Positions 181 through 32,047 of a stretch of 64,000 nt of DNA are shown one piece after another. The DNA is taken from positions 32,001 to 96,000 of IMG/VR virus record IMGVR_UViG_3300034072_001149. One strand, written 5' to 3'. The translations under genes were made by a program, and so were the position numbers. The stretch is from a virus. Position 1 is the first letter of the stretch. Each line of letters starts with the position of its first letter. A model generated the notes under the pieces. It had not been told where the DNA came from and ran no database searches. It worked only from the letters and a program-made list of their open reading frames with translations.

Positions 181-552
181 TTGGGCACTACCACACTCAA
201 GGATTATGGCCGCCATTCGGAACGCCATGGTGACATTCCTTTTTATTATGGCTTTCCCTATCGTTTTTGGTTTGGGGAGCACCAGCTGGCTCCGGAAGAC
301 GTCGAGACCTGGTGTCGTGAGAACTGCGTTGGCTTCTACAAGACGGTCAGCTATACCCACAAGTCGTCGGTCCGGGTCAAGGGCCAGCCCAACAAGTTCG
401 ATACCAAGGTGGTCTATATCGACAAGATCTACCTGGCCAGTGATGCTGATGCCATGCGCGTCAAGCTTCAGTTCGACGTTCGTGACGAGGTCGTGAAGCG
501 GCCGGAACGAATCAAGGCTCGGCGCAAGAAGCGCAGGGTAGTCAAGGCTTAA
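181..552 (+). CDS. Hypothetical phage protein, member of the DAxxFKL-like small-protein family
   Basis: AAGGAG Shine-Dalgarno before TTG; motif IYLASDADAMRVKLQF; basic tail. Confidence 0.7.
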   Translation: MGTTTLKDYGRHSERHGDIPFYYGFPYRFWFGEHQLAPEDVETWCRENCVGFYKTVSYTHKSSVRVKGQPNKFDTKVVYIDKIYLASDADAMRVKLQFDVRDEVVKRPERIKARRKKRRVVKA

Positions 553-568
553 CGCCTTGAAACGCAAG

Positions 569-605
569 AAAAAGGTCGGGGAACCAATCTCCGACCTTTT
601 TCTTT
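569..605. terminator. Intrinsic terminator, probably bidirectional
   Basis: AAAAAGGTCGGGGA...TCTCCGACCTTTTT stem-loop with A and T runs. Confidence 0.75.
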
Positions 606-680
606 ATTTTGAGTATTGATCTTTTGGATCATGCTCAGTATATAATGTTCTATCCATTGAACAACAAAAGGATATCGTTC

Positions 681-1181
681 ATGAAGACTATCGTTCTCGC
701 CGCCGTTGCGGCTCTGGCCGCAATGGCAACTCCTGCCGCAGCACAGGATTTCACCGGCGCTCGTGTTGGCGCAACTGTCGGCTACGACAACGTTCAGGGC
801 GTCGAAGACGTCGCTTACAATGCCGTGGTCGGATATGACCTGGCTGTTGCTCCCAAGGTGACGCTGGGCGCTGAAGCTACCCTGGGTGACTCGGAAATTT
901 CGACGGCCGGTGTGGCTGCTTCGCGCGACGTGGGCATCTCGCTCCGCGCTGGCTATATCGTGACTCCTCGTCTGCTGGCATTCGGCAAGGTCGGCTACGC
1001 AACGACCCGCGTCGAGACCCTGGTCGGCAACACCAACTTCGAAGGTGTTCGTTTCGGTGGCGGTCTGGAATATGCGGTGACGAAGAACGCCTATGTTTCG
1101 GCTGAATATGCTCGCACCGAGTATGAGGCCGGCATCGGTGGCCGCGACCAGGCACTGGTCGGCGTCGGCATCCGCTTCTAA
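681..1181 (+). CDS. Outer-membrane beta-barrel protein (Omp25/OmpA-membrane/porin-like), host-derived
   Basis: AAGGA SD before ATG 681; Ala-rich signal peptide MKTIVLAAVAALAAMATPAAA; alternating strands; LRAGY and GGGLEY motifs; terminal Phe (GIRF). Confidence 0.85.
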   Translation: MKTIVLAAVAALAAMATPAAAQDFTGARVGATVGYDNVQGVEDVAYNAVVGYDLAVAPKVTLGAEATLGDSEISTAGVAASRDVGISLRAGYIVTPRLLAFGKVGYATTRVETLVGNTNFEGVRFGGGLEYAVTKNAYVSAEYARTEYEAGIGGRDQALVGVGIRF

Positions 1182-11924: not shown

Positions 11925-14321
11925 TTAGAAGGAATGCTCGGCTATAGACTTTGTATTCTTGTTGCCTTCCTGTAGCAGACGATCCATTCTATCACTCATA
12001 TTGCGTATCACAGCGATTTCTTCACGAACCGCTTCTAGATGTCGATCGCTGTTGTCTTTGATCTGCTTTAGGATTCCTGTAGAGCGTTCTGTTGCTTCCA
12101 TTATTCTATTTGTCATTTGATCAACAGTCAGAGAAGTCCTAGAACGCTGCCCTGTAGCATCAGCTGGAGCGGCAACGTTGCGTGGTTTAGACTGCGGCAC
12201 GTTAGACCCTGCACGGGCACTCATAGGGCTTTGAGAAGCATCACTGCCCGTTAAGTTGTCCCAGTCGTTGTAGATTGCTCCTCCAAGACCAGTAAGACCA
12301 CCTAGGACAGCACCTGGAATCGCACCAACACCGGCAAAGGCTGAACCAGCTAACGCACCACTACCGGCTCCGCTTAAAATACTAGTTAGATAGCTAGTGC
12401 TTCGTGATCCAAAGAAGCCTTTTTCATTGGCCCCAGTTCCAGTAAAACTTTCACCTCGACGACTCTGGATTTGTTCACCGGATAGATACATGCCACCAAC
12501 ACCGGCAGCGACACCGCCTGCGATCCCAAGAGCAGGAGCAGCAACCCTAGCCAAACCAGCCAGTCGACCTGCGCCACCAGCAAGTCGCCCTGCGCCTCCA
12601 ACTGCGCCTCCAGCCCCTCGGGCACCAGAACCCAAAAACGAGCCGATGCCTCGAAAAACTTTCAAACCACCTGCTGCTGCCGTCAATGCTCCGGAGAAAA
12701 TAGCCAGACCACCAGCTACACCAATTGCTGCCACCCCAATAGAGCCCATTGTATTAGTCTGAAGGGAAGCGCTCATAGCAAGTTCTTGAAGCTTTACGTT
12801 GAAAGCATCCATATTAGGTAGAATGTCGTCCCTGAGCTTAGGACCCATCATATCAACCATAGGATTGAATACAGCAGTAACACCCGAATCAATAGTTACC
12901 ATTGCCTTGTTGAATGATTCAGCAAGCTGTAGGGCACCTACACCAGCGCGCTGTTCGTCATTCTGATTTTGATCAGAAGCACGGTTGAAATCATAATCTG
13001 TATTATTGCTCTGAGACACAAAGCGATTTTGAAGAACTGATTTCAAAGCACCGCTTAATGGATTATTGTCAAGACCTGCTTGTTGGGCAAATTGTAGCTG
13101 AAGATCTTTGTTCTTAGCTAGATTGGCCCCATTTTCCTTTAGAGCTCTAGCCACCTCTATCTGAACTTGGTCGGAGGATGCTCCGCGACTCAACATACTT
13201 TCAGCAAGAGACAATGCTTTCTGTAAATCAGGATTGACAGCAGCAAGTTCAGCAGCAGGTTTGTTGACTACCTGCCCATAAGTTAGCTGATCCGTAATGG
13301 CCTGAACACCAACATCGCCAAAGTTGTTTTTAAAGATATCTCGAACCGCATTGGCAGTTTGGGCATCAAATCCCTTGGAATCTGCCACAGCATTAAACTG
13401 ATAATCAGCGGCTGCTAGTTTCTGTGCTTCCAGGGCCTCTTCTCGGGTTTTACCTAGAATATGAGCTGTGGTTTCACTGGTCTTTACCAAGTTTAGGATA
13501 CCAGCAGCCATTTGCTCACTTGAACGATTCTGACCGGCACCCTGAAGTCTTAGAATCTCAGCATAAGTGGAAGTGACTTCAGTGATTTGATCAGGCAACA
13601 TTCCCATATAACCAGACGCACGAGTCATCTCTACTAGGGATTTTCTAACGTCGCCGAATTTGATAGCACCTAGCTGACGAGCACCCTGGGTTCCGTTGCT
13701 CATTGCTTCAACAAACTGCTTTACAGTCATACCAGCTGCTGATGCTTGGCGGCCCATATCCTGCATGGACATGACTGAGCCTTCACCAGTAGCCATGAGC
13801 TGTCTATAGAAGTCTATTCTTTCAGCACCAACTGAAAAGCTTTTTGCTACGAATGCAGATGCCGATGATGCCACTGCTCCAAAAGAGCTATTGGCCGCAG
13901 CCAGTCTTTCACCAAAGGTTTTGGTGTTTTTTCCCGCTGTATCAACAGCGTCGGAAAACTCATTGGCTTCAGAACCGGCTTTTCGCAGGATCTGATCCAA
14001 AATGGTATTACCATCGCGATCACCCTGACGACGAGTCTTTTCTTCAGTTATTATGGTATTGCGTTTGGTAGTTGGAGACTGAACCGGATTAGGTCCTGGA
14101 CGAGGGGCGCCCTTGCGCATCTCTTTGACCAATTCACTTATGATAGTTTTTCTATCTTGTGTGGATGAGTCACCCTTACCAATAGATCCACTCATTTTAT
14201 TGAGGATCATTCTAATGCGGTAAAGCTCGTCGCGAGACAGCTGGTCACCCTTGGTTCTCTCTAGGCGGTCACCAAGATTTTCAATGATCGTCTTGAGTTG
14301 TTCAAGGTCAAAATCAGCCAT
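11925..14321 (-). CDS. Putative tape-measure protein
   Basis: GGGAGA SD before ATG 14321; long helical Ala/Gln-rich protein with Gly/Ala hydrophobic C-terminal segments; divergent from the gp26-like gene. Confidence 0.65.
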   Translation of the reverse strand: MADFDLEQLKTIIENLGDRLERTKGDQLSRDELYRIRMILNKMSGSIGKGDSSTQDRKTIISELVKEMRKGAPRPGPNPVQSPTTKRNTIITEEKTRRQGDRDGNTILDQILRKAGSEANEFSDAVDTAGKNTKTFGERLAAANSSFGAVASSASAFVAKSFSVGAERIDFYRQLMATGEGSVMSMQDMGRQASAAGMTVKQFVEAMSNGTQGARQLGAIKFGDVRKSLVEMTRASGYMGMLPDQITEVTSTYAEILRLQGAGQNRSSEQMAAGILNLVKTSETTAHILGKTREEALEAQKLAAADYQFNAVADSKGFDAQTANAVRDIFKNNFGDVGVQAITDQLTYGQVVNKPAAELAAVNPDLQKALSLAESMLSRGASSDQVQIEVARALKENGANLAKNKDLQLQFAQQAGLDNNPLSGALKSVLQNRFVSQSNNTDYDFNRASDQNQNDEQRAGVGALQLAESFNKAMVTIDSGVTAVFNPMVDMMGPKLRDDILPNMDAFNVKLQELAMSASLQTNTMGSIGVAAIGVAGGLAIFSGALTAAAGGLKVFRGIGSFLGSGARGAGGAVGGAGRLAGGAGRLAGLARVAAPALGIAGGVAAGVGGMYLSGEQIQSRRGESFTGTGANEKGFFGSRSTSYLTSILSGAGSGALAGSAFAGVGAIPGAVLGGLTGLGGAIYNDWDNLTGSDASQSPMSARAGSNVPQSKPRNVAAPADATGQRSRTSLTVDQMTNRIMEATERSTGILKQIKDNSDRHLEAVREEIAVIRNMSDRMDRLLQEGNKNTKSIAEHSF

Positions 14322-14393
14322 AGGTCTCCCCGATCTTACATCATTATTTAGTGACCTATTAACCGCGCGGTTTATCAACCGATAAGTAGACGT

Positions 14394-15272
14394 ATGAAAG
14401 AGGAGACAAAGATGTCCAACAATCCATTAGCCGCTTATTTCCGTGGGGCAGACGTTCACCAAATGCTACCCACACAGGGTCAGTTTTTTGAAGAAGGTGA
14501 AATTGACCTAGCCATTAACGGGGAAGTCGCCATTCTACCAATGACCGCCGCTGATGAGATTATTTTGAAGAACCCAGACGCTTTGCTGAATGGCGATGCT
14601 CTGGAGCGTCTTTTCAAAAGTTGTGTTCCGGCAATCAAGTCTCCCCGTAAAATCAGCGTTCCTGACATGGACGTTTTGCTACTGGCTATAAAATTGGCCA
14701 GTTATGGAGACACGCTTGAAATCTCCACTACTTGCCCCAAGTGTAAGACAGAATCTTCTTTTGAAACAAGCATAAGGGGAATCCTGGCTAGTATCACTCT
14801 GGTCAAAGATGAAGATACGCTAGTTCGAATTGACGATGACATGGTAGTGTATCTGAAGCCTTATGATTTCGAAAGTAAAACCAAGTTGGATCTGGCAGCA
14901 TTTGAAGAGGCCAAGCTTCTTCAACACCTATTGAGCATGGATGCCGATGACGAGGAAAAGGCCAAACTTTTCAATGAATCGTTTGAAAAAATTGCAGAAC
15001 TCAATCTGGATTTGCTCAGTCATTGTATAAGACATATTCAGATTCCTGACCGGGCTTCTAATGGTGAAACCATAATGGTTTCAGACCAAACCCATATCAG
15101 AGAGTTTGTCCGCAACGCTGACAAGAATAAGATCAAGAAGATCAACGAAAAGCTTGCTCATCTAAGTCAGAGTGGTGTCAATCGTGATATTGATGTTCAG
15201 TGCGCAAATGAAGAATGTAAGCATGAATGGAAAACCCAAATGACTTTTGATGCTGCCCATTTTTTCGCCTAA
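14394..15272 (+). CDS. Baseplate hub/tail assembly chaperone (T4 gp26-like)
   Basis: NPLAAYFR, PMTAADE..LKNPDALLNG, ASYG..CPKC, C-terminal CxxxxC and FF-stop; true start may be ATG 14412. Confidence 0.8.
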   Translation: MKEETKMSNNPLAAYFRGADVHQMLPTQGQFFEEGEIDLAINGEVAILPMTAADEIILKNPDALLNGDALERLFKSCVPAIKSPRKISVPDMDVLLLAIKLASYGDTLEISTTCPKCKTESSFETSIRGILASITLVKDEDTLVRIDDDMVVYLKPYDFESKTKLDLAAFEEAKLLQHLLSMDADDEEKAKLFNESFEKIAELNLDLLSHCIRHIQIPDRASNGETIMVSDQTHIREFVRNADKNKIKKINEKLAHLSQSGVNRDIDVQCANEECKHEWKTQMTFDAAHFFA

Positions 15273-15277
15273 GGCTC

Positions 15278-15496
15278 TTGGGGACTCCACCTGAAGATGT
15301 GCCGCTGATTCTTCAGGAATATGTGGACGAAGCAAGAGCCCTTGAATCACAATTGATACAGATAGCTTTTTATATGCGAGGAGGTTGTCCACTGGATCAA
15401 GCTTACAAGCTAACAAATAACCAGAGGAAGAGCACCCTAAAGTTCATTGAAGAGAATATCGAGAGAACCAACAAAACTGGCATTATGATGCACTAA
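15278..15496 (+). CDS. Baseplate hub assembly protein (T4 gp51-like), probably expressed by -1 frameshift from 14394..15272
   Basis: FYMRGG...AYKLT motif; no good start codon; in the -1 frame after a T_TTT_TTC slippery site. Confidence 0.65.
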   Translation: MGTPPEDVPLILQEYVDEARALESQLIQIAFYMRGGCPLDQAYKLTNNQRKSTLKFIEENIERTNKTGIMMH

Positions 15497-15909
15497 AGGG
15501 AGCCAGTTTCCAGAAAAATACCTGCTAGATTGGAGTTGCGACTTACATGGCAAAACTCAAGATCAAGACCCTGAGAGACCTCCTTGAACTTCTTGAACAG
15601 GTCGATAAGCAATTGGTTATTGATCTTCCAAAGACCGGAAGCCTGATTGATAACCAGCTGACTGTCACCAAAAATGACAGCCTTTTGAACGCCATTGTCT
15701 TTGGCCCAAATAACAGCCCAGATCAACGCTGACCATTCCGCCACATTATTAGTTCCCTGCCCGAGATCTTTCATTGTGAGTGCTTGAGGTTTTTCATTAT
15801 CCCTGCAGATGACGATACATGAACTCATTCGTCCTGGGTTGGGTGAACAGCCGCCGTCGAAGTAGATCTTTATTTCAGGGCCATAACGGGCAAAATCAGA
15901 ATTATCCAT
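15493..15909 (-). CDS. rnhA: Ribonuclease HI-family protein
   Basis: IYFDGGCSPNPG, TNNVAEWSAL, GDSQLVINQ and HVSRNSN motifs; own TTGACG promoter at about 15937-15943. Confidence 0.9.
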   Translation of the reverse strand: MDNSDFARYGPEIKIYFDGGCSPNPGRMSSCIVICRDNEKPQALTMKDLGQGTNNVAEWSALIWAVIWAKDNGVQKAVIFGDSQLVINQASGLWKINNQLLIDLFKKFKEVSQGLDLEFCHVSRNSNLAGIFLETGSL

Positions 15910-15949
15910 TCCTAATACTAATCAATCAGTCATGGAATCGTCAATCTCT

Positions 15950-16790
15950 TCATGGGCTCTAGCCCATTGGCTTCACCTTCAGCTTGCTTTGCTGCGCTGA
16001 AGGACAAACGTGATTACACTCGCTGTTACTCGTGAATCACGTTTGTATTAGGTTTGAAGTAGAGTTCTGGATTGTTGAGTAAAAAGCAGAATTACGATCT
16101 ATATTCTCCTCGAACATTATCATTGGAATTGGTTACTCAGGACGAACTAATGATTAACAAAGCACTGAGCTTTCTGGCATTGCCAGAATAGCGAAGTAGG
16201 ACTTTGCGAGTGTGAGCTTGCGAGCGCGAGTAAAGGCCTCTTGACCTTTGGAACTTTGGCTGAACTCTGTATCCAATCGTTCAGTCACACTGACTTCCCC
16301 CGTTTCCGGGAGAAGTTCAAAAATGAATAGAATCTATAGATTTAAGGGATTCACACAATATGACTGGCGTGGACAGTTCAGAGGATCCTAGGTCTGCCAT
16401 TATATCCTGCACCTTTTCAGTGCTCACTGCCGCTTCTGTGTAATCGGTCTCCAGCTGGAGTACCTTTCCACACAGGACGGTCGGTAGTTCGTTACGCTAC
16501 CACTCAACATCTCCATTGCTCACGCCAGCGGCTCCGGAGACTTGCTCGTTTCTTTTCAAAACGAGTCTAGTCTTTGACTAGGGCGTCCCACTCTTTGGAG
16601 AGCGAGGGACCTGCCTAGATTTCCAGGACGTTGCCGAAGCCATCTCCAGATCCATTCGAGATCCGTTGAAGTTCCTCTGGGGTTTAGCACGTAGCCACTT
16701 TCCCAGCCCATGGTCGCCGCCCAATACAGCGCTCTCCGGGGGTTCGAGGGCATGATCTGCGCCTCCACTGCCTTATCTTTCTCATACTTC
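15950..16790 (-). ncRNA. Putative large structured non-coding RNA (family unassigned)
   Basis: No credible ORF; dense stems, several closed by GAAA loops on the minus strand; long-range pairing between 16364-16371 and 16521-16528. Confidence 0.55.
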
Positions 16791-16828
16791 AGTTTCCAAA
16801 CACTGATAAATAAGTATGTAAAGGACGG

Positions 16829-16887
16829 GTATATTATTGGGTGGTAGTATATTATTGGGTGTTTTTAGGCGTTTAAGTGTTTAGGTG
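16829..16887 (+). repeat. Short direct repeats: GTATATTATTGGGTG x2 and TTTA(G/A)G(C/T)G x3
   Basis: 15-mers at 16829-16843 and 16847-16861; octamers at 16864, 16872 and 16880. Confidence 0.85.
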
Positions 16888-16920
16888 ATCGCCTGGTGGC
16901 TCAAATCGTTCTTAGTGTAT

Positions 16921-16970
16921 GGGCCCCGGTTGGAACTTCCAGTTCCTCCGGGGCTCTTTGTTTTTGTTTT
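16921..16970 (+). terminator. Intrinsic terminator for a short plus-strand transcript
   Basis: GGGCCCCGG...CCGGGGCTC followed by TTTGTTTTTGTTTT. Confidence 0.7.
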
Positions 16971-17103
16971 GTGTCTAGGGGCTATAAAGTAGAATCTGTA
17001 ACAATCCTCTTGTGGGATATTTAGTACACAGATTAGACCAATTTAGTGGTCTCGATTCAGCTACATCTGATTATCGATCTGGGTGACAACCAAAATCACC
17101 CTT

Positions 17104-17913
17104 TTAGAAGTTTTCTTCTTTCATCGAAACAAGAATACACCCACTTCTGGGGCTCTTTACTCTTTGATCCTTTATCCAGTATGGTACCTTACTGTGCTTG
17201 ATGTCAACAAACCAGGTTTCTTTTTCTGTATTCTCCGTGCCAAAAACATAACGTAGAAAGATCAGATTCCAGCGATGATCTGATTCCAAATCATAACCCT
17301 TGATTACAATTGGATTCTTGGAGTATGAGGTATAAAGGTAAGTTAGATCGGATTCTTTTACATACTCCACCTTTGTCAAAGTCTTCCTAGGAATTTGAAG
17401 ACATTGTCTGTTGGTATCGTATTTGCTTAATAGTTTGATCGGTCCAGAGTAGACATCTTTCCTCAACGCTTTGGCTGCTTGAAGCTTATAAAAATCCAAA
17501 AGGACTCGGGCCATGCTCTTTTTTACCTGGGGGTCAATCCTAGCTGGTTTGGCTGGTAGATCCAACAGATACAAAAGCTTTTCACTTAGAAAGCGATTGC
17601 CCTGAGAATTTTTACCAAGGATCATCCTACGATGTGGTTGAAGATGATTTGGCAATACCGGTTCAGAGGAATCGTTAAAGTATGGCTTTAGTGACATCCC
17701 AGACTCTGCTAGCGTTTCCCAAAGACTAACCCAATCTTTATGAAGAGAAACCAAAAGTTCAGGACAAGACCGGACCCTAGAATTCAATCCTTCTACCAGA
17801 GAATTATAATAGCCTATCTCTTGCTTTATAAACCCTTTGTAAAGAGCAGCATCGGTAGAAGCTAGATCAATCATAATACTCAAATCACGAAATTTAGCTT
17901 TCACAATCAACAC
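17104..17913 (-). CDS. TnpB/Cas12-like WED-REC protein lacking RuvC (putative RNA-guided DNA-binding protein)
   Basis: TnpB-like spacing of N-terminal strand and helix ending YYN, helix RIDPQVKKSMARVLLDFYK, and WED strands ending WFVDI; no RuvC-I DxG motif. Confidence 0.5.
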   Translation of the reverse strand: MLIVKAKFRDLSIMIDLASTDAALYKGFIKQEIGYYNSLVEGLNSRVRSCPELLVSLHKDWVSLWETLAESGMSLKPYFNDSSEPVLPNHLQPHRRMILGKNSQGNRFLSEKLLYLLDLPAKPARIDPQVKKSMARVLLDFYKLQAAKALRKDVYSGPIKLLSKYDTNRQCLQIPRKTLTKVEYVKESDLTYLYTSYSKNPIVIKGYDLESDHRWNLIFLRYVFGTENTEKETWFVDIKHSKVPYWIKDQRVKSPRSGCILVSMKEENF

Positions 17914-17996
17914 CTTTCTTAGATCACATCATGCGATAGGAATGCCTCCTTTGTCTATATTCTGGTGGGAATAAATACCCATATAATTGGAAAAGG

Positions 17997-18542
17997 ATGT
18001 TTATGACTAGCCGACAAAAATCCAAAGGTAATGCCTGGGAAAACGAGATCTGTAAGTTTTTTGGAGAGACTCTAGGAGGCAACTTCCAGCGAGTCCCCAA
18101 TTCAGGCGCATATATCGGCGGGAAGAACGTCTTCAGAAAGGACCATCTATCTGAAGGGCAGGCTCGAGCAGCCAAGGGAGATATCATTCCTCCTGATGAT
18201 CTACCAAAGTTGAATATTGAAGCCAAGAACTATGGCGACATTGCCTTTCATCAGATCATTGATGGGAGTTGTAAGCAACTTGATACTTGGATTGATCAGA
18301 CAGAGGAACCAGCCGACCAAGGCGACTTTTCAATGACCATCTTCAAAATTACTCGCAGGGGAAGTTGGGTTGCGTTCAAGGCTGAAAATCTAGAGAAGTT
18401 TGATATGACTGGACTCTCATATGTTACCTATCGAAAAGGGTTCGGTTCTGAAAATGCTTGCGACTATATTGTAGTCAGTCATGTGCCGTTTTTCATCCAA
18501 AACAAATCGGCAGTAAGGAAACTAGGTGGCGCTGAAAATTGA
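17997..18542 (+). CDS. Holliday junction resolvase (Hjc-type PD-(D/E)xK)
   Basis: SKGNAWENEI, RVPNSGA, GDII..P and IEAK motifs; TAAATA late promoter at 17972. Confidence 0.8.
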   Translation: MFMTSRQKSKGNAWENEICKFFGETLGGNFQRVPNSGAYIGGKNVFRKDHLSEGQARAAKGDIIPPDDLPKLNIEAKNYGDIAFHQIIDGSCKQLDTWIDQTEEPADQGDFSMTIFKITRRGSWVAFKAENLEKFDMTGLSYVTYRKGFGSENACDYIVVSHVPFFIQNKSAVRKLGGAEN

Positions 18543-18566
18543 CCTTTTGGTGTCATCTATAGCATA

Positions 18567-18599
18567 AAGAAAGCCGGAGTTGTTTCCGGCTTTCTTTTT
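18567..18599. terminator. Intrinsic terminator
   Basis: AAAGAAAGCCGGAG-TTGT-TTCCGGCTTTCTTTTT. Confidence 0.75.
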
Positions 18600-18608
18600 G
18601 GAGTTCAT

Positions 18609-18959
18609 ATGGGTAAGCTAAGTTTAAGACAGGTTGAACGTAAGAACTACCCGTATGGAAAGTTCAAGTATATTGTCCTTCTCAACCGAGAATCTCGTAG
18701 GATCTGGCGTTGTCCCAGCAACGCGTCTATGGTTGAGCAGATCCGTGGCCTGCTCAAAACTACCATAAATGGATCTTATAAGCTTGTCCATGACTACAAC
18801 TATCGTAGTCGTAGGGTTTATACTCATCTGTATCTAACAGAACCAATGGACCTTGCTATGCTCAAATTGGTTCACGGTGACAAGCTTTTTAAGATTTACA
18901 AGGTAAAGCTAGTTCAGCCTCACGAATCACCTTCAAGTGATGATCAAACTGAATCCTAA
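18609..18959 (+). CDS. Hypothetical protein (DAxxFKL-like family)
   Basis: GGAG SD; LYLTEPMDLAMLKL motif. Confidence 0.65.
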   Translation: MGKLSLRQVERKNYPYGKFKYIVLLNRESRRIWRCPSNASMVEQIRGLLKTTINGSYKLVHDYNYRSRRVYTHLYLTEPMDLAMLKLVHGDKLFKIYKVKLVQPHESPSSDDQTES

Positions 18960-19134
18960 CAGCAAAGACATCCTGAAGTTCATTGGTGTAAAATGAATCA
19001 CCTATGATTTCATGATCGCCAACAAATCTACCGGCAAACCAGTCATCGACTTGCTTGGCTTTATCTTTATGGACGAATTGCGCTTGGTAACGCCACTTGT
19101 TGAAAAACTTATTCTTCGTCGTTTGAAATCTCAT
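18889..19134 (-). CDS. Hypothetical protein (DAxxFKL-like family)
   Basis: VDDWF...FYTNELQDVFAVRIQF. Confidence 0.5.
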   Translation of the reverse strand: MRFQTTKNKFFNKWRYQAQFVHKDKAKQVDDWFAGRFVGDHEIIGDSFYTNELQDVFAVRIQFDHHLKVIREAELALPCKS

Positions 19135-19462
19135 CAGGATCATCCGTATGCTGCTCTACCCGGTCGAACAGCGTCTTAAAAGCTTCATGATCCTGTAGTT
19201 TCCACATCAGCAGAATTCCAGAATTCTGCAGATAGAGTTCAACTTCATTGGTGGAAGGATGGTTCTGGAGTTTCCAGTCAACACCATCTTCCCCAACTTC
19301 CCGCCGGAGTCGCTTTTCAAGTCGGCTCTTTTGGGAAATGGCAGTGATCACATCATTCGTTTTGGCGAGAACAGCCCGGATTTTGAAACCAGTGAAAATC
19401 GTTGAAGGATCCCAATCCGCGTCGTAGCGATTGACCTTGCGAATTTCAAGTTTGCTGCTCAT
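19109..19462 (-). CDS. Hypothetical protein
   Basis: GGAG SD; LYLQNSGILLMWKL. Confidence 0.65.
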   Translation of the reverse strand: MSSKLEIRKVNRYDADWDPSTIFTGFKIRAVLAKTNDVITAISQKSRLEKRLRREVGEDGVDWKLQNHPSTNEVELYLQNSGILLMWKLQDHEAFKTLFDRVEQHTDDPDEISNDEE

Positions 19463-19522
19463 CGTTCACTCCATATTTAACCTTGTAGGCTTTCTAGCAC
19501 AGGAAGGCTAGACGTCAACCAA

Positions 19523-19831
19523 TTAGGCCCAAGATAGTTTGAATAGAATCGCATGGTCTGGATTCTTGAAGAATATCCGCATTTGTGTTTGACGGTTTGA
19601 ATGGGATGAAGAGACGCAAGGATCTATTGGTCCATAGGGACACCATGCCCAATTATTTCTGTCATGGGTCAAGGCGGTATGGACTTCATCTTCAGTCCAC
19701 CATAACATCCAATCACCTTTTCCAGCGATTCGTTCTAGAGTTTCAACTAACTTCTCACTGGCGTGCGCCCGAGACCGTACATTACCGTTTTTGGAAAGAC
19801 AGTCCAATGGTATGATAACGCTTGCGGTCAT
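19523..19831 (-). CDS. Hypothetical protein (DAxxFKL family)
   Basis: C-terminal FFKNPDHAILFKLSW. Confidence 0.7.
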   Translation of the reverse strand: MTASVIIPLDCLSKNGNVRSRAHASEKLVETLERIAGKGDWMLWWTEDEVHTALTHDRNNWAWCPYGPIDPCVSSSHSNRQTQMRIFFKNPDHAILFKLSWA

Positions 19832-20055
19832 AGCCAGGTCAGCTTGAATTTTAGGGCATCCGTTAGGTTGAAAAAGTAAATGGCTACTTCTCGCTCTTCA
19901 CGAAAATGATCCCAATACCAGTCTTCACCTTTGACATTCTGGTATAACCATGACAGGCAATCTGAAGATAGGAATACGTCACCCCAGATATCTGCTCTGA
20001 CTATTCCCTTTTTACGCCATTCTTCAATAGTGGCATCAAAGCTGATGGGGATCAT
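19828..20055 (-). CDS. Hypothetical protein (DAxxFKL family)
   Basis: C-terminal [15 protein letters not shown]. Confidence 0.7.
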
Positions 20056-20914
20056 TTATGAACATTCCACATGAGGCGGCAACATCAAAACCAACCCTTG
20101 GAACGATTCGACTGTTTTCGTTTCCAAAAGCCTCAGACAAGATATCAAAGTTTCTTTGTATGATATCTTCACTGGGTTCTTGTCCCTGTGCTGGGCTATA
20201 AGGGTTGTAACGAACCAGATTGAACTTTACATCAAGGCTACGAACCAAGATAGCCATAATGATTTCTTCCAAAACTTCAAGGCTATCGTTTTCATTTTCG
20301 ATAAAAGACCAATGGAGAGTTACCAGTTGCCCAGTGCGCTGCTGCCATTCCACTAGCTTCCAAAGAGCATCATGAGGATTCATGGATTTGGGAAGCCATC
20401 GTTTGCGAAAGTCATCTCGCATGGAATAAAGGGAATAATAGATTTGTGCTCCAGTGTCACCAAAGATGTCATAGAGGCTGCGATCTGAAACTTCTAAAGG
20501 CATGATTGTGCTAATGTTATACTTGGCAATCAGAGCATGTTGTTCTGCTAGGCTCTGTAAGGGCCTAGAGACGTCATCCCATTTTGTTAGCACTGTGGGA
20601 TTAGACAACGGCTCTCCACGCGCCATGAAGTTAAAATTGACCCTCTGGGCATCGTCAAATTGACGATAGTGGCGAAACACCTGCAAGGCTTGGTTTTCAT
20701 AGTCCCAAGCACTTGCAGGTGTCATCATGGTTTGACGTGTCTGCGTCAAATGGCAAAACCTACATGCTTTGTTACAACCAGTATGGCTGCTCAAATAGGT
20801 AATGAAATAATCCTCTTGGCGCCGAACATACCTTGCTTCAAATGCTCCTTTGTCATCCTGTGGTATAACAAAGTTTACACTGGCATCTTCGGCGCTGTAG
20901 AGGATTCTAGTCAT
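20036..20914 (-). CDS. RlmN/Cfr-like radical SAM enzyme
   Basis: [13 protein letters not shown] (CxxxCxxC), [15 protein letters not shown] and [10 protein letters not shown] motifs. Confidence 0.85.
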
Positions 20915-22691
20915 TTGCTTCAGTATCCGTTACAAAGGTGGTGAAGTTGTTTTCCTTCTGAACCAGCAATATCCGTGGCACACGACTGACCAAACTGTCA
21001 TTATGTGAAATTAGGAAAATGTTCTTGCCGCGGTCACGAGTCATTTTCTTGAGAATCTCAAGGGCCAAATCCATACCTGCTGGGTCCATGCCAGAATCCA
21101 CCAATTCGTCAATCATCAGTAGGTTCAAGGGCTTGTTCATAGTTTCCCAAACATCACGGAACGACCACGCCAAAGACAGAACCAGGCGGTTAGCTTCACC
21201 ATTTGAAAGCTGGGCAAAATCATATTCTTTACCAAGCAGCATGATTTCAACTGACAGATCACTCTGGAAGCTGACCTCATGTGGAAGCTGAACTTTGTCC
21301 AAATAGCTATTGAGGCGAACGTTCAAATAACTAAGATTCTGGTCAATGATCTTCTTGCGAATAAAGGAGTTCTTATCGGTCAGAAGCTTGACCAGAAAGT
21401 TCTGGTGTTCTTGTAAGCGAGTCAACTCATTGAGGTATTCATATGAAATATCCTGTAGACCAGACGTGCTCAAGGTGGCAATTTGATCCAGGTAGGGTGA
21501 TTCAACCGCTGCCTCTCTGGTGATATCGCTGATCAGCTTATCCAGAGTATGACGATGATTGAGAGCCTGCTCCATGTTGTCGTAGTTGACAACAGGTGCT
21601 TCCCCCAATTGACTCAATTCACCTATAGCTTTTTCAAGGTCAGACGCCGCGGCATAGAGTTCAGCTTCGGCGGCTTCTCGCTCAGCGACCAACTTTGCCT
21701 TGCGCTCCTGTAGATCAGCTAGGATCTCAGCATGTTTTTCACTGTGAACTTCCTGACCACAAGTGTGACATAGGTTTTCGTTAGCCATTTCAAGCTGGCT
21801 ATCAATTCGGGAAATACTCGACTCAACTGCGATATAGGACTTTTCTATCCTAGAAGCATCACGTTCAAAACGTGCGACTTCCTGGCTGAGTCGATTAAAC
21901 TCAACCAAAGTCCTCTGATTATTGATTTCGGTCTCAATATCAATTTCATTGAGGTTATCAATAGCCTTTTCCAACTTGAGCAGCTTGGCGGTATGCTCTT
22001 TGTCCCACATCTTGCTCTTGAAGTTGAGTTCATTGATAGTCTTTTGGATCTTTTCGTTAGAGTCCTTGACCGTCTTTATGCGAATTTCCTCGCTTTTGAT
22101 TTCATCTTTGATTTGCTTGACTAGTTCTTTTAGCTGATCGGCTTTGCTTGACAACTGAGTGATTCCAAGCAGTTCTTCAATGACATCTCTTTGGTCTTTG
22201 GCTGACATATCCAAGAATGGAACGGTCTTGCTGTGGAGGGCAACAATATGCTTGAATAGAAGATGCGAACATCCAATAGTCTTTTCGATTTCTGCCTGTG
22301 TTACCTTGCTTTCACCGTGGGCTTCGTCTGTGCCGTCCGCATTCACCAATCCATCATTGACATAAAAACGGAGGAAGTTTGGCTTGCGACCGCGCTCAAT
22401 TCGATAGTTCTTGTTGCCAATATCAAAATCCAGACTCACACTCATCTGCTTTTGATTGGTTTTGTTGACAAGGTTATCGCGCTTGATGGCTGTGAGCGGC
22501 AGTCCATAGATCGCATAGCAGATCGCTTGGATCAAAGTGGTCTTACCTACACCATTGCGACTGCCCCCTGAACCCAGGTCAACATTCTCACCCAATATCA
22601 AAGTCAGACCATGCTCGTCAAGATTAACTGCCTGAGTGGTGTTACCTACACTAAGAAAATTCTTCATAGTTACGGTTCGAATTTTTATCAT
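20907..22691 (-). CDS. Recombination ATPase subunit (T4 gp46/SbcC/Rad50-like)
   Basis: [15 protein letters not shown] Walker A, CHTCGQ zinc hook, LSNGE signature, LLMIDE Walker B. Confidence 0.95.
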
Positions 22692-30175: not shown

Positions 30176-32047
30176 ATGGCTAACCAAGGATTCCGTAGAT
30201 CATTCAGAACACCTCCGGGGTATTTGAATCAAGAAGCCAACGCTAGAGTGGGCTTATTCAACCAAGTATATCTTGGATTTGTGAAAAACAATGAGGATGC
30301 TTTTAAAAATGGTCGTCTTCAAGTTTGGATTCCTGAATTTTCTACATCACCTGACAATGAGAGTCAGTGGGTAACGGTTCAATATTGTTCTCCTATGGCC
30401 GGTGCGACTCCGGTCAAAGACAATGTCAAAGAAGGCCGAACGCTATCTGATACCCAACAGTCGTATGGTTGGTGGTCCGTGCCGCCTGATGTTGATAATG
30501 AAGTTATCGTAATGTTCATTAACGGTGATCCCAATAGGGGCATTTATATTGGCGGTCTCTATCAGCCGTTTATGAACCACATGGTTCCTGGAATACCTAG
30601 TGCCACCTCTTATCAAGAGGGAGTAGAAGGTCAAGACCCGCCAGTAGCAGAATACAATCGTTGGGATCCAGGTGTGACTGATTCTGACAATCACACTAGA
30701 GCTCGATTTGATCCCCTACACGAGGGTCTAAGAAACCAGGGTCTCTACACCGACCCACAACGCGGTCCAAGCGATGCAGGAGCTCGTAGAGCTCCTGTGA
30801 GCAAAGTATATGGCTTTAAGAGTCCCAAGGGCTCTCATATGGTTTTTGACGATGCTGATGAGAATTCATACATTCGTTTTAGGACCGCATCAGGAGCTCA
30901 AATCCTAATCAATGACTCAGCAGGTTACGTCTATATCATCAGCGCAAACGGTAATAGCTGGTTTGAAATCAGCGACGAAGGAATTGATGGTTATTCGGCT
31001 AATTCTATCAGCTTGCGATCTCAACAAGATATAAACCTTCATGCTGACGGATCCATTAACCAGTATGCCAAGAGACAATGGAATGCTTACGCGGGCGGTG
31101 GTCTCACTATGCAGGGTAAGAGCGTTGATATTTTGAGTGCGTCAACCGCCAATATCAGTGCCAATGGTGATTTGAATCTATTGAGCAATGCCAATGTGAA
31201 TTCAAGCGCAGGTGGTAATTGGAGTGCCCGAGCAGGCGGCACCGCCGCTTTAAATTCTGGTGGAGCCCTTGGCGTAAGTTCAGGGGGTACTCTATTCCTA
31301 CGAGGATCTCAGATCCAACAGAATAGTGGTAGTGGACCTCGAGCTACTGCTGCCAAAGAAGGGTCTGGACCCAGACCTGAGGAACTTGAAGACCGTGAAC
31401 TCAACGTGGAAACAAATTATGAAGAGATTTCTACTAAGACCATTGTCAGTAGAATGCCCACTCATGAACCGTGGTCAGGTCACCCCAATAGTGGATCAGG
31501 ATCTGTCCGTCGTAGGGTTGACTTGAGTGTGAGTACCCGCGTGCAGGTTGACGGTGACGGCAACGTAGCTAGTAATCCAGATGATATCCAGCCCGGTACC
31601 GAGGAAAGTGTTCCAGCAGACAATGCTGAATTTGTGGCTCCATGTTCAGGGGTCGCAGGAAGTCAGTTTGGTCCCAGAACTCCTCCCAAAGCCGGCGCAT
31701 CTTCAATTCACGCCGGATTGGATGTAAGATGTCCAATCGGAACTACTCTTGTAGCAATGCGCGATGGCACCGTTACATTTACAGGTAGAAGAGGCGGATA
31801 CGGTCTTTTCTTAGAAGTCAGACACGATAACGGATACACCACTAGATTTGGTCATTTGAGTTCTATTTCAGCTAAAGTTGGTCAAAAAGTCAAAGCAGGT
31901 CAAGTGGTTGGTAAAACTGGTAATACTGGCAACAGTACTGGTCCACATTTACACTTTGAGATTCGAAAGAATGGAAAACCTATAAATCCAGCAACTAAGT
32001 TGAGGAATACTAAGAGAGGACAACGATTAACCGCTGGTAGAAACTGA
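30176..32047 (+). CDS. Baseplate spike/hub (gp5/VgrG-like OB-fold plus beta-helix) with C-terminal M23 peptidase
   Basis: GRLQVWIP, SYGWW..PPDV; HAGLD, GYG and TGNSTGPHLHFEI motifs. Confidence 0.85.
   Translation: MANQGFRRSFRTPPGYLNQEANARVGLFNQVYLGFVKNNEDAFKNGRLQVWIPEFSTSPDNESQWVTVQYCSPMAGATPVKDNVKEGRTLSDTQQSYGWWSVPPDVDNEVIVMFINGDPNRGIYIGGLYQPFMNHMVPGIPSATSYQEGVEGQDPPVAEYNRWDPGVTDSDNHTRARFDPLHEGLRNQGLYTDPQRGPSDAGARRAPVSKVYGFKSPKGSHMVFDDADENSYIRFRTASGAQILINDSAGYVYIISANGNSWFEISDEGIDGYSANSISLRSQQDINLHADGSINQYAKRQWNAYAGGGLTMQGKSVDILSASTANISANGDLNLLSNANVNSSAGGNWSARAGGTAALNSGGALGVSSGGTLFLRGSQIQQNSGSGPRATAAKEGSGPRPEELEDRELNVETNYEEISTKTIVSRMPTHEPWSGHPNSGSGSVRRRVDLSVSTRVQVDGDGNVASNPDDIQPGTEESVPADNAEFVAPCSGVAGSQFGPRTPPKAGASSIHAGLDVRCPIGTTLVAMRDGTVTFTGRRGGYGLFLEVRHDNGYTTRFGHLSSISAKVGQKVKAGQVVGKTGNTGNSTGPHLHFEIRKNGKPINPATKLRNTKRGQRLTAGRN

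Follow-up and report, generated by a model that had tools for sequence, protein, structure and literature searches.

The gene at positions 17104..17913 (minus strand) of the window, a stretch of 64,000 nucleotides corresponding to positions 32,001 to 96,000 of the IMG/VR record IMGVR_UViG_3300034072_001149, is best explained as a whole as coding for an immobile, nuclease-free recognition lobe of the TnpB/Cas12 type, which may have an EGFOA-like RNA as its partner. We assign this explanation a probability of roughly 60%. The assignment as a stand-alone protein consisting of WED and REC (WED+REC, the recognition lobe) is based on the ORF, the protein family, an AlphaFold2 model and fold searches. 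A first-pass annotation, made by eye from the sequence, had proposed a domesticated, nuclease-less, RNA-guided binder. The nuclease-less and immobile character found support in our analysis; RNA guidance did not, as neither a guide nor a target was found.

The gene and its protein family

The ORF at 17104-17913 (-) is real and complete. It comprises 269 aa and ends with a TAA stop codon. The true start is likely the GTG at 17904, which is located behind an AAAGG; the product given by the gene caller has 266 aa. In the upstream region, at window positions 17923-17951 (-), a strong Shine-Dalgarno sequence (AAGGAGG) is followed by a two-codon mini-ORF (ATG ATG TGA). This mini-ORF stops 7-16 nt ahead of the candidate starts of the WED+REC gene; it may act as a leader or serve translational coupling.

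Because a suppressor tRNA with a CUA anticodon is present in the window, recoding of the WED+REC ORF was tested. The ORF ends with TAA, and reading neither TAG as Q nor TGA as W lengthens it or opens the 1.2 kb downstream, so recoding was rejected. The tRNA itself is encoded at 61556-61632 (-); it was classified as tRNA-Pyl by ARAGORN and matches the Rfam tRNA model with 73 bits. It is of the amber-suppressor type, though the phage genes here read normally under table 11.

An exhaustive phmmer/HMMER search, which covered 1.84 billion representatives, returned 126 relatives at E<=1e-3. All of them have a length of 96-345 aa and none has the length of TnpB; fused or longer forms (>345 aa) did not appear. 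At 50% identity the family comprises 126 clusters. The 98 full-length members that were aligned (alignment A2) have 236-345 aa. Thus the C-terminal end of the window protein is normal for the family and not the result of a truncation. In A2, E32, N37, K169, H171, Q173 and W234 are near-invariant and Y245 is invariant, and the near-invariant KRH motif of the family reads RQC in the window protein. The family is basic, with a median pI of 9.36 and 99% of its members above pI 8. The window protein has no match in Pfam or PHROGs, and no relatives from cultured phages were found, either by tblastn of three family members against INPHARED or by megablast of the locus.

Predicted fold and descent

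The AlphaFold2 model built on alignment A2 (pLDDT 91.4, pTM 0.87) consists of a strand at residues 11-15, helices at 19-150, six strands within 171-239 and a disordered tail at 252-269. The helical part (17464..17859 (-)) aligns to REC of Cas12f/TnpB and is a REC-like domain inserted after the first WED strand (11-15). Residues 171-239 (17197..17403 (-)) are, according to the model and the fold alignments, the C-terminal part of the WED barrel, which has seven strands when strand 11-15 is included. The tail (17107..17160 (-); AlphaFold2 and A2), with Y245 just ahead of it, is located where TnpB would enter RuvC. The segments singled out in the first-pass annotation coincide with these elements: LSIMI is strand 11-15 and the YYN helix segment the start of helix 19-49; RIDPQVKKSMARVLLDFYK lies within helix 128-150; and LYTSY, IVIK, WNLIFLRY and WFVDI are the strands 190-194, 202-205, 217-224 and 232-239.

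The likeness to WED and REC of TnpB/Cas12 that had been read from these segments was borne out by three comparisons of the model with known structures. In Foldseek against the PDB it matched almost only Cas12f, TnpB, Cas12n, Cas12k, Cas12m and Fanzor, with a best match at E 9.6e-4 and probability 1.0; the whole-chain TM is low (~0.35) because the model matches only half of each target. VIA-align against TnpB and Cas12f gave Z scores of 10.5-9.0 and an rmsd of 3.5-4.5 Å over 160-171 residues, with residues 5-241 of the model aligned to 1-174 of ISDra2 TnpB and to 1-~210 of Cas12f. In a search of 48,161 representative PDB chains that was independent of Foldseek, ranks 1-28 were all occupied by Cas12, TnpB or Fanzor chains, with Z falling from 10.1 to 5.2. 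Next came an unrelated chain, with a Z of 5.0 over half the length; it matched the helical part only.

BFVD yielded the family member A0A345MN37 (TM 0.79) and then giant-virus TnpB/Fanzor 'transposases'. Among the BFVD matches to the model were also uncharacterised proteins of two cultured jumbo phages, A0A1S6L3E0 of Erwinia phage Yoloswag (325 aa, probability 0.97) and A0A386K639 of Dickeya phage JA11 (362 aa, 0.66). Both are candidates for additional short proteins of the TnpB-lobe type.

In ISDra2 TnpB, WED is a seven-stranded barrel made up of residues 1-12 and 117-176, REC (13-116) is inserted between WED strands 1 and 2, and RuvC starts at residue 185 (PMC10097598). The model agrees with this in domain order and number of strands, and ends at the WED/RuvC border. 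At the fold level the likeness to TnpB/Cas12 clearly exceeds chance; at the level of sequence profiles it does not. We consider it very probable that the protein has the WED+REC fold of TnpB/Cas12 and has lost the nuclease half.

At the sequence level the situation is different. None of the 98 family members matches the Pfam models of TnpB (HTH_OrfB_IS605 and OrfB_IS605), and the family profile found no TnpB or Cas12 chain among the PDB sequences. Compared by hhalign with an alignment of TnpBs from 21 Bacillota genes, the family scored 14.1; a reversed control reached 11.5, so the score is not significant. In the best local alignment, residues 12-52 fall on the N-terminal strand-helix of TnpB and YYN on a conserved N, as proposed in the first-pass annotation. 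As a sequence-level TnpB signal is missing, we infer descent from TnpB/Cas12 not from sequence but from the distinctive two-domain topology of the model, and on these grounds descent appears probable. Alternatively, the fold match could reflect convergence or a very ancient shared module, in which case the OB barrel with its helical insert would have an origin other than TnpB/Cas12. The missing profile signal is consistent with this, and a Z of ~10 is rated as middling by the alignment tool, at an identity of 6-13%. However, the model and TnpB/Cas12 have an identical two-domain topology (seven strands, insert following strand 1); in the unbiased PDB search no other superfamily appears within ranks 1-28; the match stops exactly at the WED/RuvC border; and the best local alignment of hhalign sits on the corresponding N-terminal strand-helix. 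Convergence is therefore an improbable explanation.

Absence of the nuclease half and immobility

That the protein stops before RuvC had been noted in the first-pass annotation and was confirmed: it ends 31 residues after WFVDI, which lies in the last WED strand, and has no RuvC or zinc-ribbon match. Pfam OrfB_Zn_ribbon has no match in the 98 members, and there are no residues left to hold a TNB. The RuvC core (PF01385) is absent from the protein as well as from the phage's own 159-kb record. A split TnpB with its nuclease half encoded elsewhere was rejected, since no PF01385 was found in three relatives of 462, 435 and 417 kb that are 90-100% complete. A pseudogenised RuvC in the 1.2-kb gap after the gene was rejected as well: a six-frame PF01385 search in which stops were read through found nothing, and the gap is conserved evenly, in an RNA-like manner.

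No Y1 transposase (Y1_Tnp) is present in the 159-kb record or in the related records searched, and the 159-kb record has no OrfB_IS605 core either, in agreement with the earlier statement that the gene has no transposase or IS context. In each of five related phage records the gene occurs in one copy and at a fixed syntenic position. Within 4 kb of the gene there is no CRISPR or other repeat array, and the only repeat in 13000-21000 is an 18-nt tandem duplication. This duplication (16829-16864) is located in a variable spacer between two conserved RNA blocks and is missing from the 435-kb relative. The lack of a nuclease half, of a transposase, of further copies and of an array argues against both a decayed IS copy and a split gene. 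The protein does not simply have an inactive nuclease lobe but has none at all, RuvC and the TNB zinc finger both being missing, and the gene is immobile, single-copy and vertically inherited in a lineage of uncultured T4-like jumbo phages.

Gene neighbourhood and evolutionary rates

The window belongs to a T4-like jumbo phage of which the 159-kb record is a fragment, with an estimated completeness of 34%. The gene order shared with its relatives is a divergent resolvase-type nuclease, the WED+REC gene, a gap of 0.5-1.3 kb and the gp26 baseplate gene, and it is kept in relatives whose WED+REC protein is 21-57% identical. The gp46/47 recombination genes are located on the other side of the locus. 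The gene had been described as embedded among core phage genes, and its conserved single-copy synteny with T4-like genes in related jumbo phages is in line with this.

The divergent neighbour in the window is a PDDEXK_15 nuclease (17997..18542 (+)), whose position is conserved in the relatives. Most of them have PDDEXK_15 here as well, whereas L038 has an Endonuclease VII (T4 gp49-type; 194-724 (-)). This exchange suggests that PDDEXK_15 is the Holliday-junction resolvase of the phage lineage. On the other side, downstream of the RNA described below, an RNase HI-like gene (15493..15909 (-)) is a syntenic neighbour in close relatives only. A radical-SAM protein (20036-20914 (-)) is encoded beside the gp46-like and gp47-like genes; it is 94% identical in the 435-kb relative, and its Pfam match, at 27.2 bits, falls short of the curated cut-off of 29.5 bits.

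Evolutionary rates were compared between the window and the 435-kb relative L001. The WED+REC protein is 57% identical between the two, while the flanking proteins are 90-98% identical. With a dN of 0.39, compared to 0.03-0.07 for its neighbours, it is the fastest-evolving large gene nearby; its dN/dS is still ~0.1. Synonymous sites are saturated everywhere (dS 1.0-3.5). Despite this saturation, the noncoding stretch 16270-16845 is ~99-100% identical, a sign that purifying selection acts on it much more strongly than on any of the genes around it. A second hypervariable spot was seen at 19523-20055, where the small ORFs 19523-19831 (-) and 19828-20055 (-) share only 50% and 35% identity, respectively, with the corresponding ORFs of the 435-kb relative; the other neighbouring proteins are 90-98% identical.

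A conserved RNA downstream of the gene

Comparison with the 435-kb relative revealed an ORF-free, highly conserved, transcript-like region (16270..17080 (-)) that starts right after the stop codon of the WED+REC gene. A stop-to-stop listing contains no frame of more than 102 codons between 15922 and 17103. Within this region lies a structured RNA core (16353..16545 (-)), which scores 219.7 bits with R1, the covariance model of the 194-nt core. It includes, at 16370-16512, a match to the Rfam family EGFOA (RF02955) of 35.9 bits, which does not reach the gathering threshold of 37.7 bits. EGFOA matches of 33.5-35.9 bits, all sub-threshold, occur at six loci (the window and five relatives). They are full-length at five of the six; in L002 the match covers positions 49-106 of the model only.

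R1 detected the RNA at eight loci from five lineages (the window, L001, L002, L003, L012, L006, L007 and L034). At all eight it shares the strand of the gene and lies 410-560 nt after the stop codon, and it was found nowhere else in the 329 kb searched. The pairing of RNA and protein is kept down to 24% protein identity. In the remotest branch (L038/L039) the protein occurs in the same synteny and the RNA was not detected. In the R1 alignment, which is fitted to the model, 23 of 46 pairs exhibit compensatory changes, and the paired cells of this fitted alignment amount to 93%, compared to 35-44% in slid controls. Two pattern searches gave candidates that were rejected. With a loose DNA pattern for the RNA in IMG/VR, 24 of 29 matches were chance matches that lacked both an R1 match and the protein; with the canonical EGFOA pattern in representative prokaryote genomes, both of the two matches were due to chance.

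Canonical EGFOA loci from metagenomes (n=23, 38.8-75.9 bits) have no member of the WED+REC family nearby (E<=10). Their neighbours are heterogeneous, some being lysis-gene-like.

No segments of the RNA of at least 15 nt match elsewhere in the complete 435-kb relative; some TldR guides have a length of 9-12 nt. A self-target search in the phage's own partial 159-kb record gave only chance-level matches of <=16 nt. A scan for sigma-70 promoters and terminators did not exceed shuffled sequences. Directly after the stop codon, at 17050-17103 (-), there is a GC-rich hairpin that is also present in L002 and L003 and whose pairing survives sequence changes. The block that follows contains, at ~17015-17025, words resembling TATAAATA, the T4 late-promoter consensus.

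Proposed function

In TnpB, WED and RuvC hold the RNA scaffold, WED and REC hold the TAM duplex, and the REC lobe cradles the RNA-DNA heteroduplex (PMC10097598). We propose that the WED+REC protein keeps the role of this lobe, i.e. that it would grip a structured RNA via WED and accommodate a nucleic-acid duplex in the cleft between WED and REC. It would be unable to cut, and a non-cutting action on nucleic acid is what we infer for it. The most likely ligand would be the extremely conserved, pseudoknot-rich EGFOA-like RNA that lies 0.4-0.55 kb downstream on the same strand. Protein and RNA together could then form a non-cutting RNA-protein particle that acts on DNA or RNA and is encoded in a replication/recombination gene block.

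For the partnership with the EGFOA-like RNA, RNA binding included, we see about even chances. Against it speaks that much of the RNA scaffold of TnpB is held by RuvC (PMC10097598), which is absent here, and that the other neighbours are conserved too, so that plain synteny could explain the adjacency of the RNA. By analogy with TnpB, a lone lobe could keep the duplex contacts and part of the RNA contacts, with the much larger RNA making up the rest. True RNA-guided target recognition by the protein is unlikely. Still more doubtful is a further-reaching interpretation, in which the 269-aa lobe and the large frozen RNA would be a minimal RNA-guided or RNA-scaffolded DNA-binding particle whose RNA structurally replaces the nuclease lobe. 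This would be the mirror image of IscB, where RNA replaces REC. If it were true, no TnpB/Cas12-type targeting system would have a smaller natural protein component, and the orphan EGFOA-like RNAs would have a first protein partner.

A different interpretation is that the lobe works without the RNA, as a plain DNA- or RNA-binding accessory of the replication/recombination module, and that the RNA shares the locus by vertical inheritance. This would fit the synteny of the whole neighbourhood, with the resolvase-type nuclease upstream and gp26 downstream, and the remote branch L038/L039, where the protein occurs and the RNA was not detected. It would also fit the existence of canonical EGFOA RNAs at loci lacking the protein; EGFOA RNAs moreover assemble into RNA-only oligomers, namely trimers and dimers (preprint). 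Furthermore, the two evolve at opposite rates, the protein fast and the RNA frozen. Yet the RNA keeps the same strand and a nearly fixed distance over five lineages, down to 24% protein identity, and the parent fold is that of an RNA-scaffold binder. We regard a lobe acting without the RNA as rather unlikely.

The evolutionary rates could also be read as the sign of an arms race, as would be expected if the lobe were an anti-defence decoy that soaks up guide RNAs of host TnpB/Cas12 or occupies PAM/TAM sites: the protein is the fastest-evolving large one nearby, and the nuclease has been lost while the binding lobe was kept. However, the dN/dS of ~0.1 and the deeply conserved syntenic position, which is that of a core gene rather than of an accessory island, make a decoy highly improbable. 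Another possibility is that the locus is an RNA-primed or R-loop replication origin, similar to ColE1 RNA II or T4 ori(uvsY). Here the structured transcript would hybridise to its template, or to a different site of the origin; the WED+REC protein would stabilise this RNA-DNA hybrid, and RNase HI would trim it to yield a primer. The heteroduplex-cradling REC lobe of TnpB, the RNase HI-like gene directly downstream and the adjacent gp46/47-like and resolvase-type nuclease genes are compatible with this, and in T4 an R-loop origin adjoins the gp25/26 baseplate block. On the other hand, the RNase H neighbour is restricted to close relatives and absent in L007, L034 and L038, and the cumulative GC-skew minimum is ~6 kb away. 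An origin thus seems very unlikely, and the nuclease-free lobe with its candidate RNA partner remains our preferred interpretation.

Comparison with known systems

ISDra2 TnpB (8H1J, 8EXA, 8EX9, 8BF8; PMC10097598) shares with the model the seven-stranded WED and the position of REC between strands 1 and 2 (Z 9.0-9.3 over TnpB 1-174). In both cases the protein is basic and a co-oriented noncoding RNA is found 3' of the gene. In contrast to TnpB, the WED+REC protein has no RuvC, TNB or C-terminal domain and no Pfam OrfB_IS605/HTH_OrfB_IS605 signal, and its gene is single-copy and immobile, without a transposase or IS ends. The phage RNA differs from omega-RNA in that its conservation starts after the stop codon, with the core ~0.5 kb downstream, and in being much larger and EGFOA-like.

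The best structural matches are Cas12f structures (AsCas12f 8DZJ/7WJU/8J12, CnCas12f 8HR5 and dCas12f 9N9C/9N9M), with Z 9.8-10.5 and an rmsd of 3.5-4.5 Å over 163-171 residues of the N-terminal WED+REC. Unlike Cas12f, the phage protein has neither the zinc-finger insert nor RuvC, and there is no CRISPR array within 4 kb. As the scores for Cas12f and TnpB are tied within 1 Z unit, either could be the donor lineage.

TldR/Flagellin-TnpB proteins (bioRxiv 10.1101/2023.11.30.569447; PMC10691335) are likewise domesticated, immobile and phage-encoded TnpB derivatives with a long 3' noncoding region and non-IS gene neighbours, and they are non-cutting, as is predicted here. They have lost only RuvC-III and the zinc finger with the overall fold kept; in the published forms the RNA-binding interface and the larger part of the RuvC fold are still present. 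The phage protein, which lacks the entire nuclease lobe, is indeed more reduced than TldR, as had been suspected in the first-pass annotation. Whereas TldRs combine a dead RuvC with a promoter-complementary guide, complementarity of at least 15 nt is missing here in the complete relative. The hosts of TldR are temperate phages; the WED+REC protein occurs in lytic-type T4-like jumbo phages.

The forms covered by surveys of TnpB exaptation are inactivated or trimmed at the C-terminus, and in all known exaptations (Cas12 types, Cas12k, Cas12m, TldR and sigma-associated TnpB) the RuvC lobe is retained, if only as a scaffold. In the literature searched, no TnpB relative lacking RuvC was described that consists of WED+REC only, nor was a half-TnpB gene just upstream of a conserved folded RNA. 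The widespread WED+REC-only family would show that the recognition lobe can live on alone. Its pairing in most lineages with an RNA that is more conserved than any neighbouring gene is a candidate for a new type of phage RNA-protein particle. If such a particle targets nucleic acids, it would be of interest for compact programmable binders.

The locus also provides a first functional handle on EGFOA-like RNAs. With EGFOA (RF02955) and EGFOA-assoc-1 (RF02970) the phage RNA has in common that its centre matches the EGFOA model and that it lies in an unusually large ORF-free gap. It differs in being sub-threshold (<37.7 bits) and far larger, and in that no relative of the WED+REC protein is near the canonical loci. 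Canonical EGFOA RNAs are present at L124 (4757-5129 (+)), L129 (8745-9116 (-)), L101 and L120, in two cases with EGFOA-assoc-1 directly upstream. They are located before an ORF of ~955 aa and after amidase-like and membrane ORFs, an arrangement with the look of a phage lysis region.
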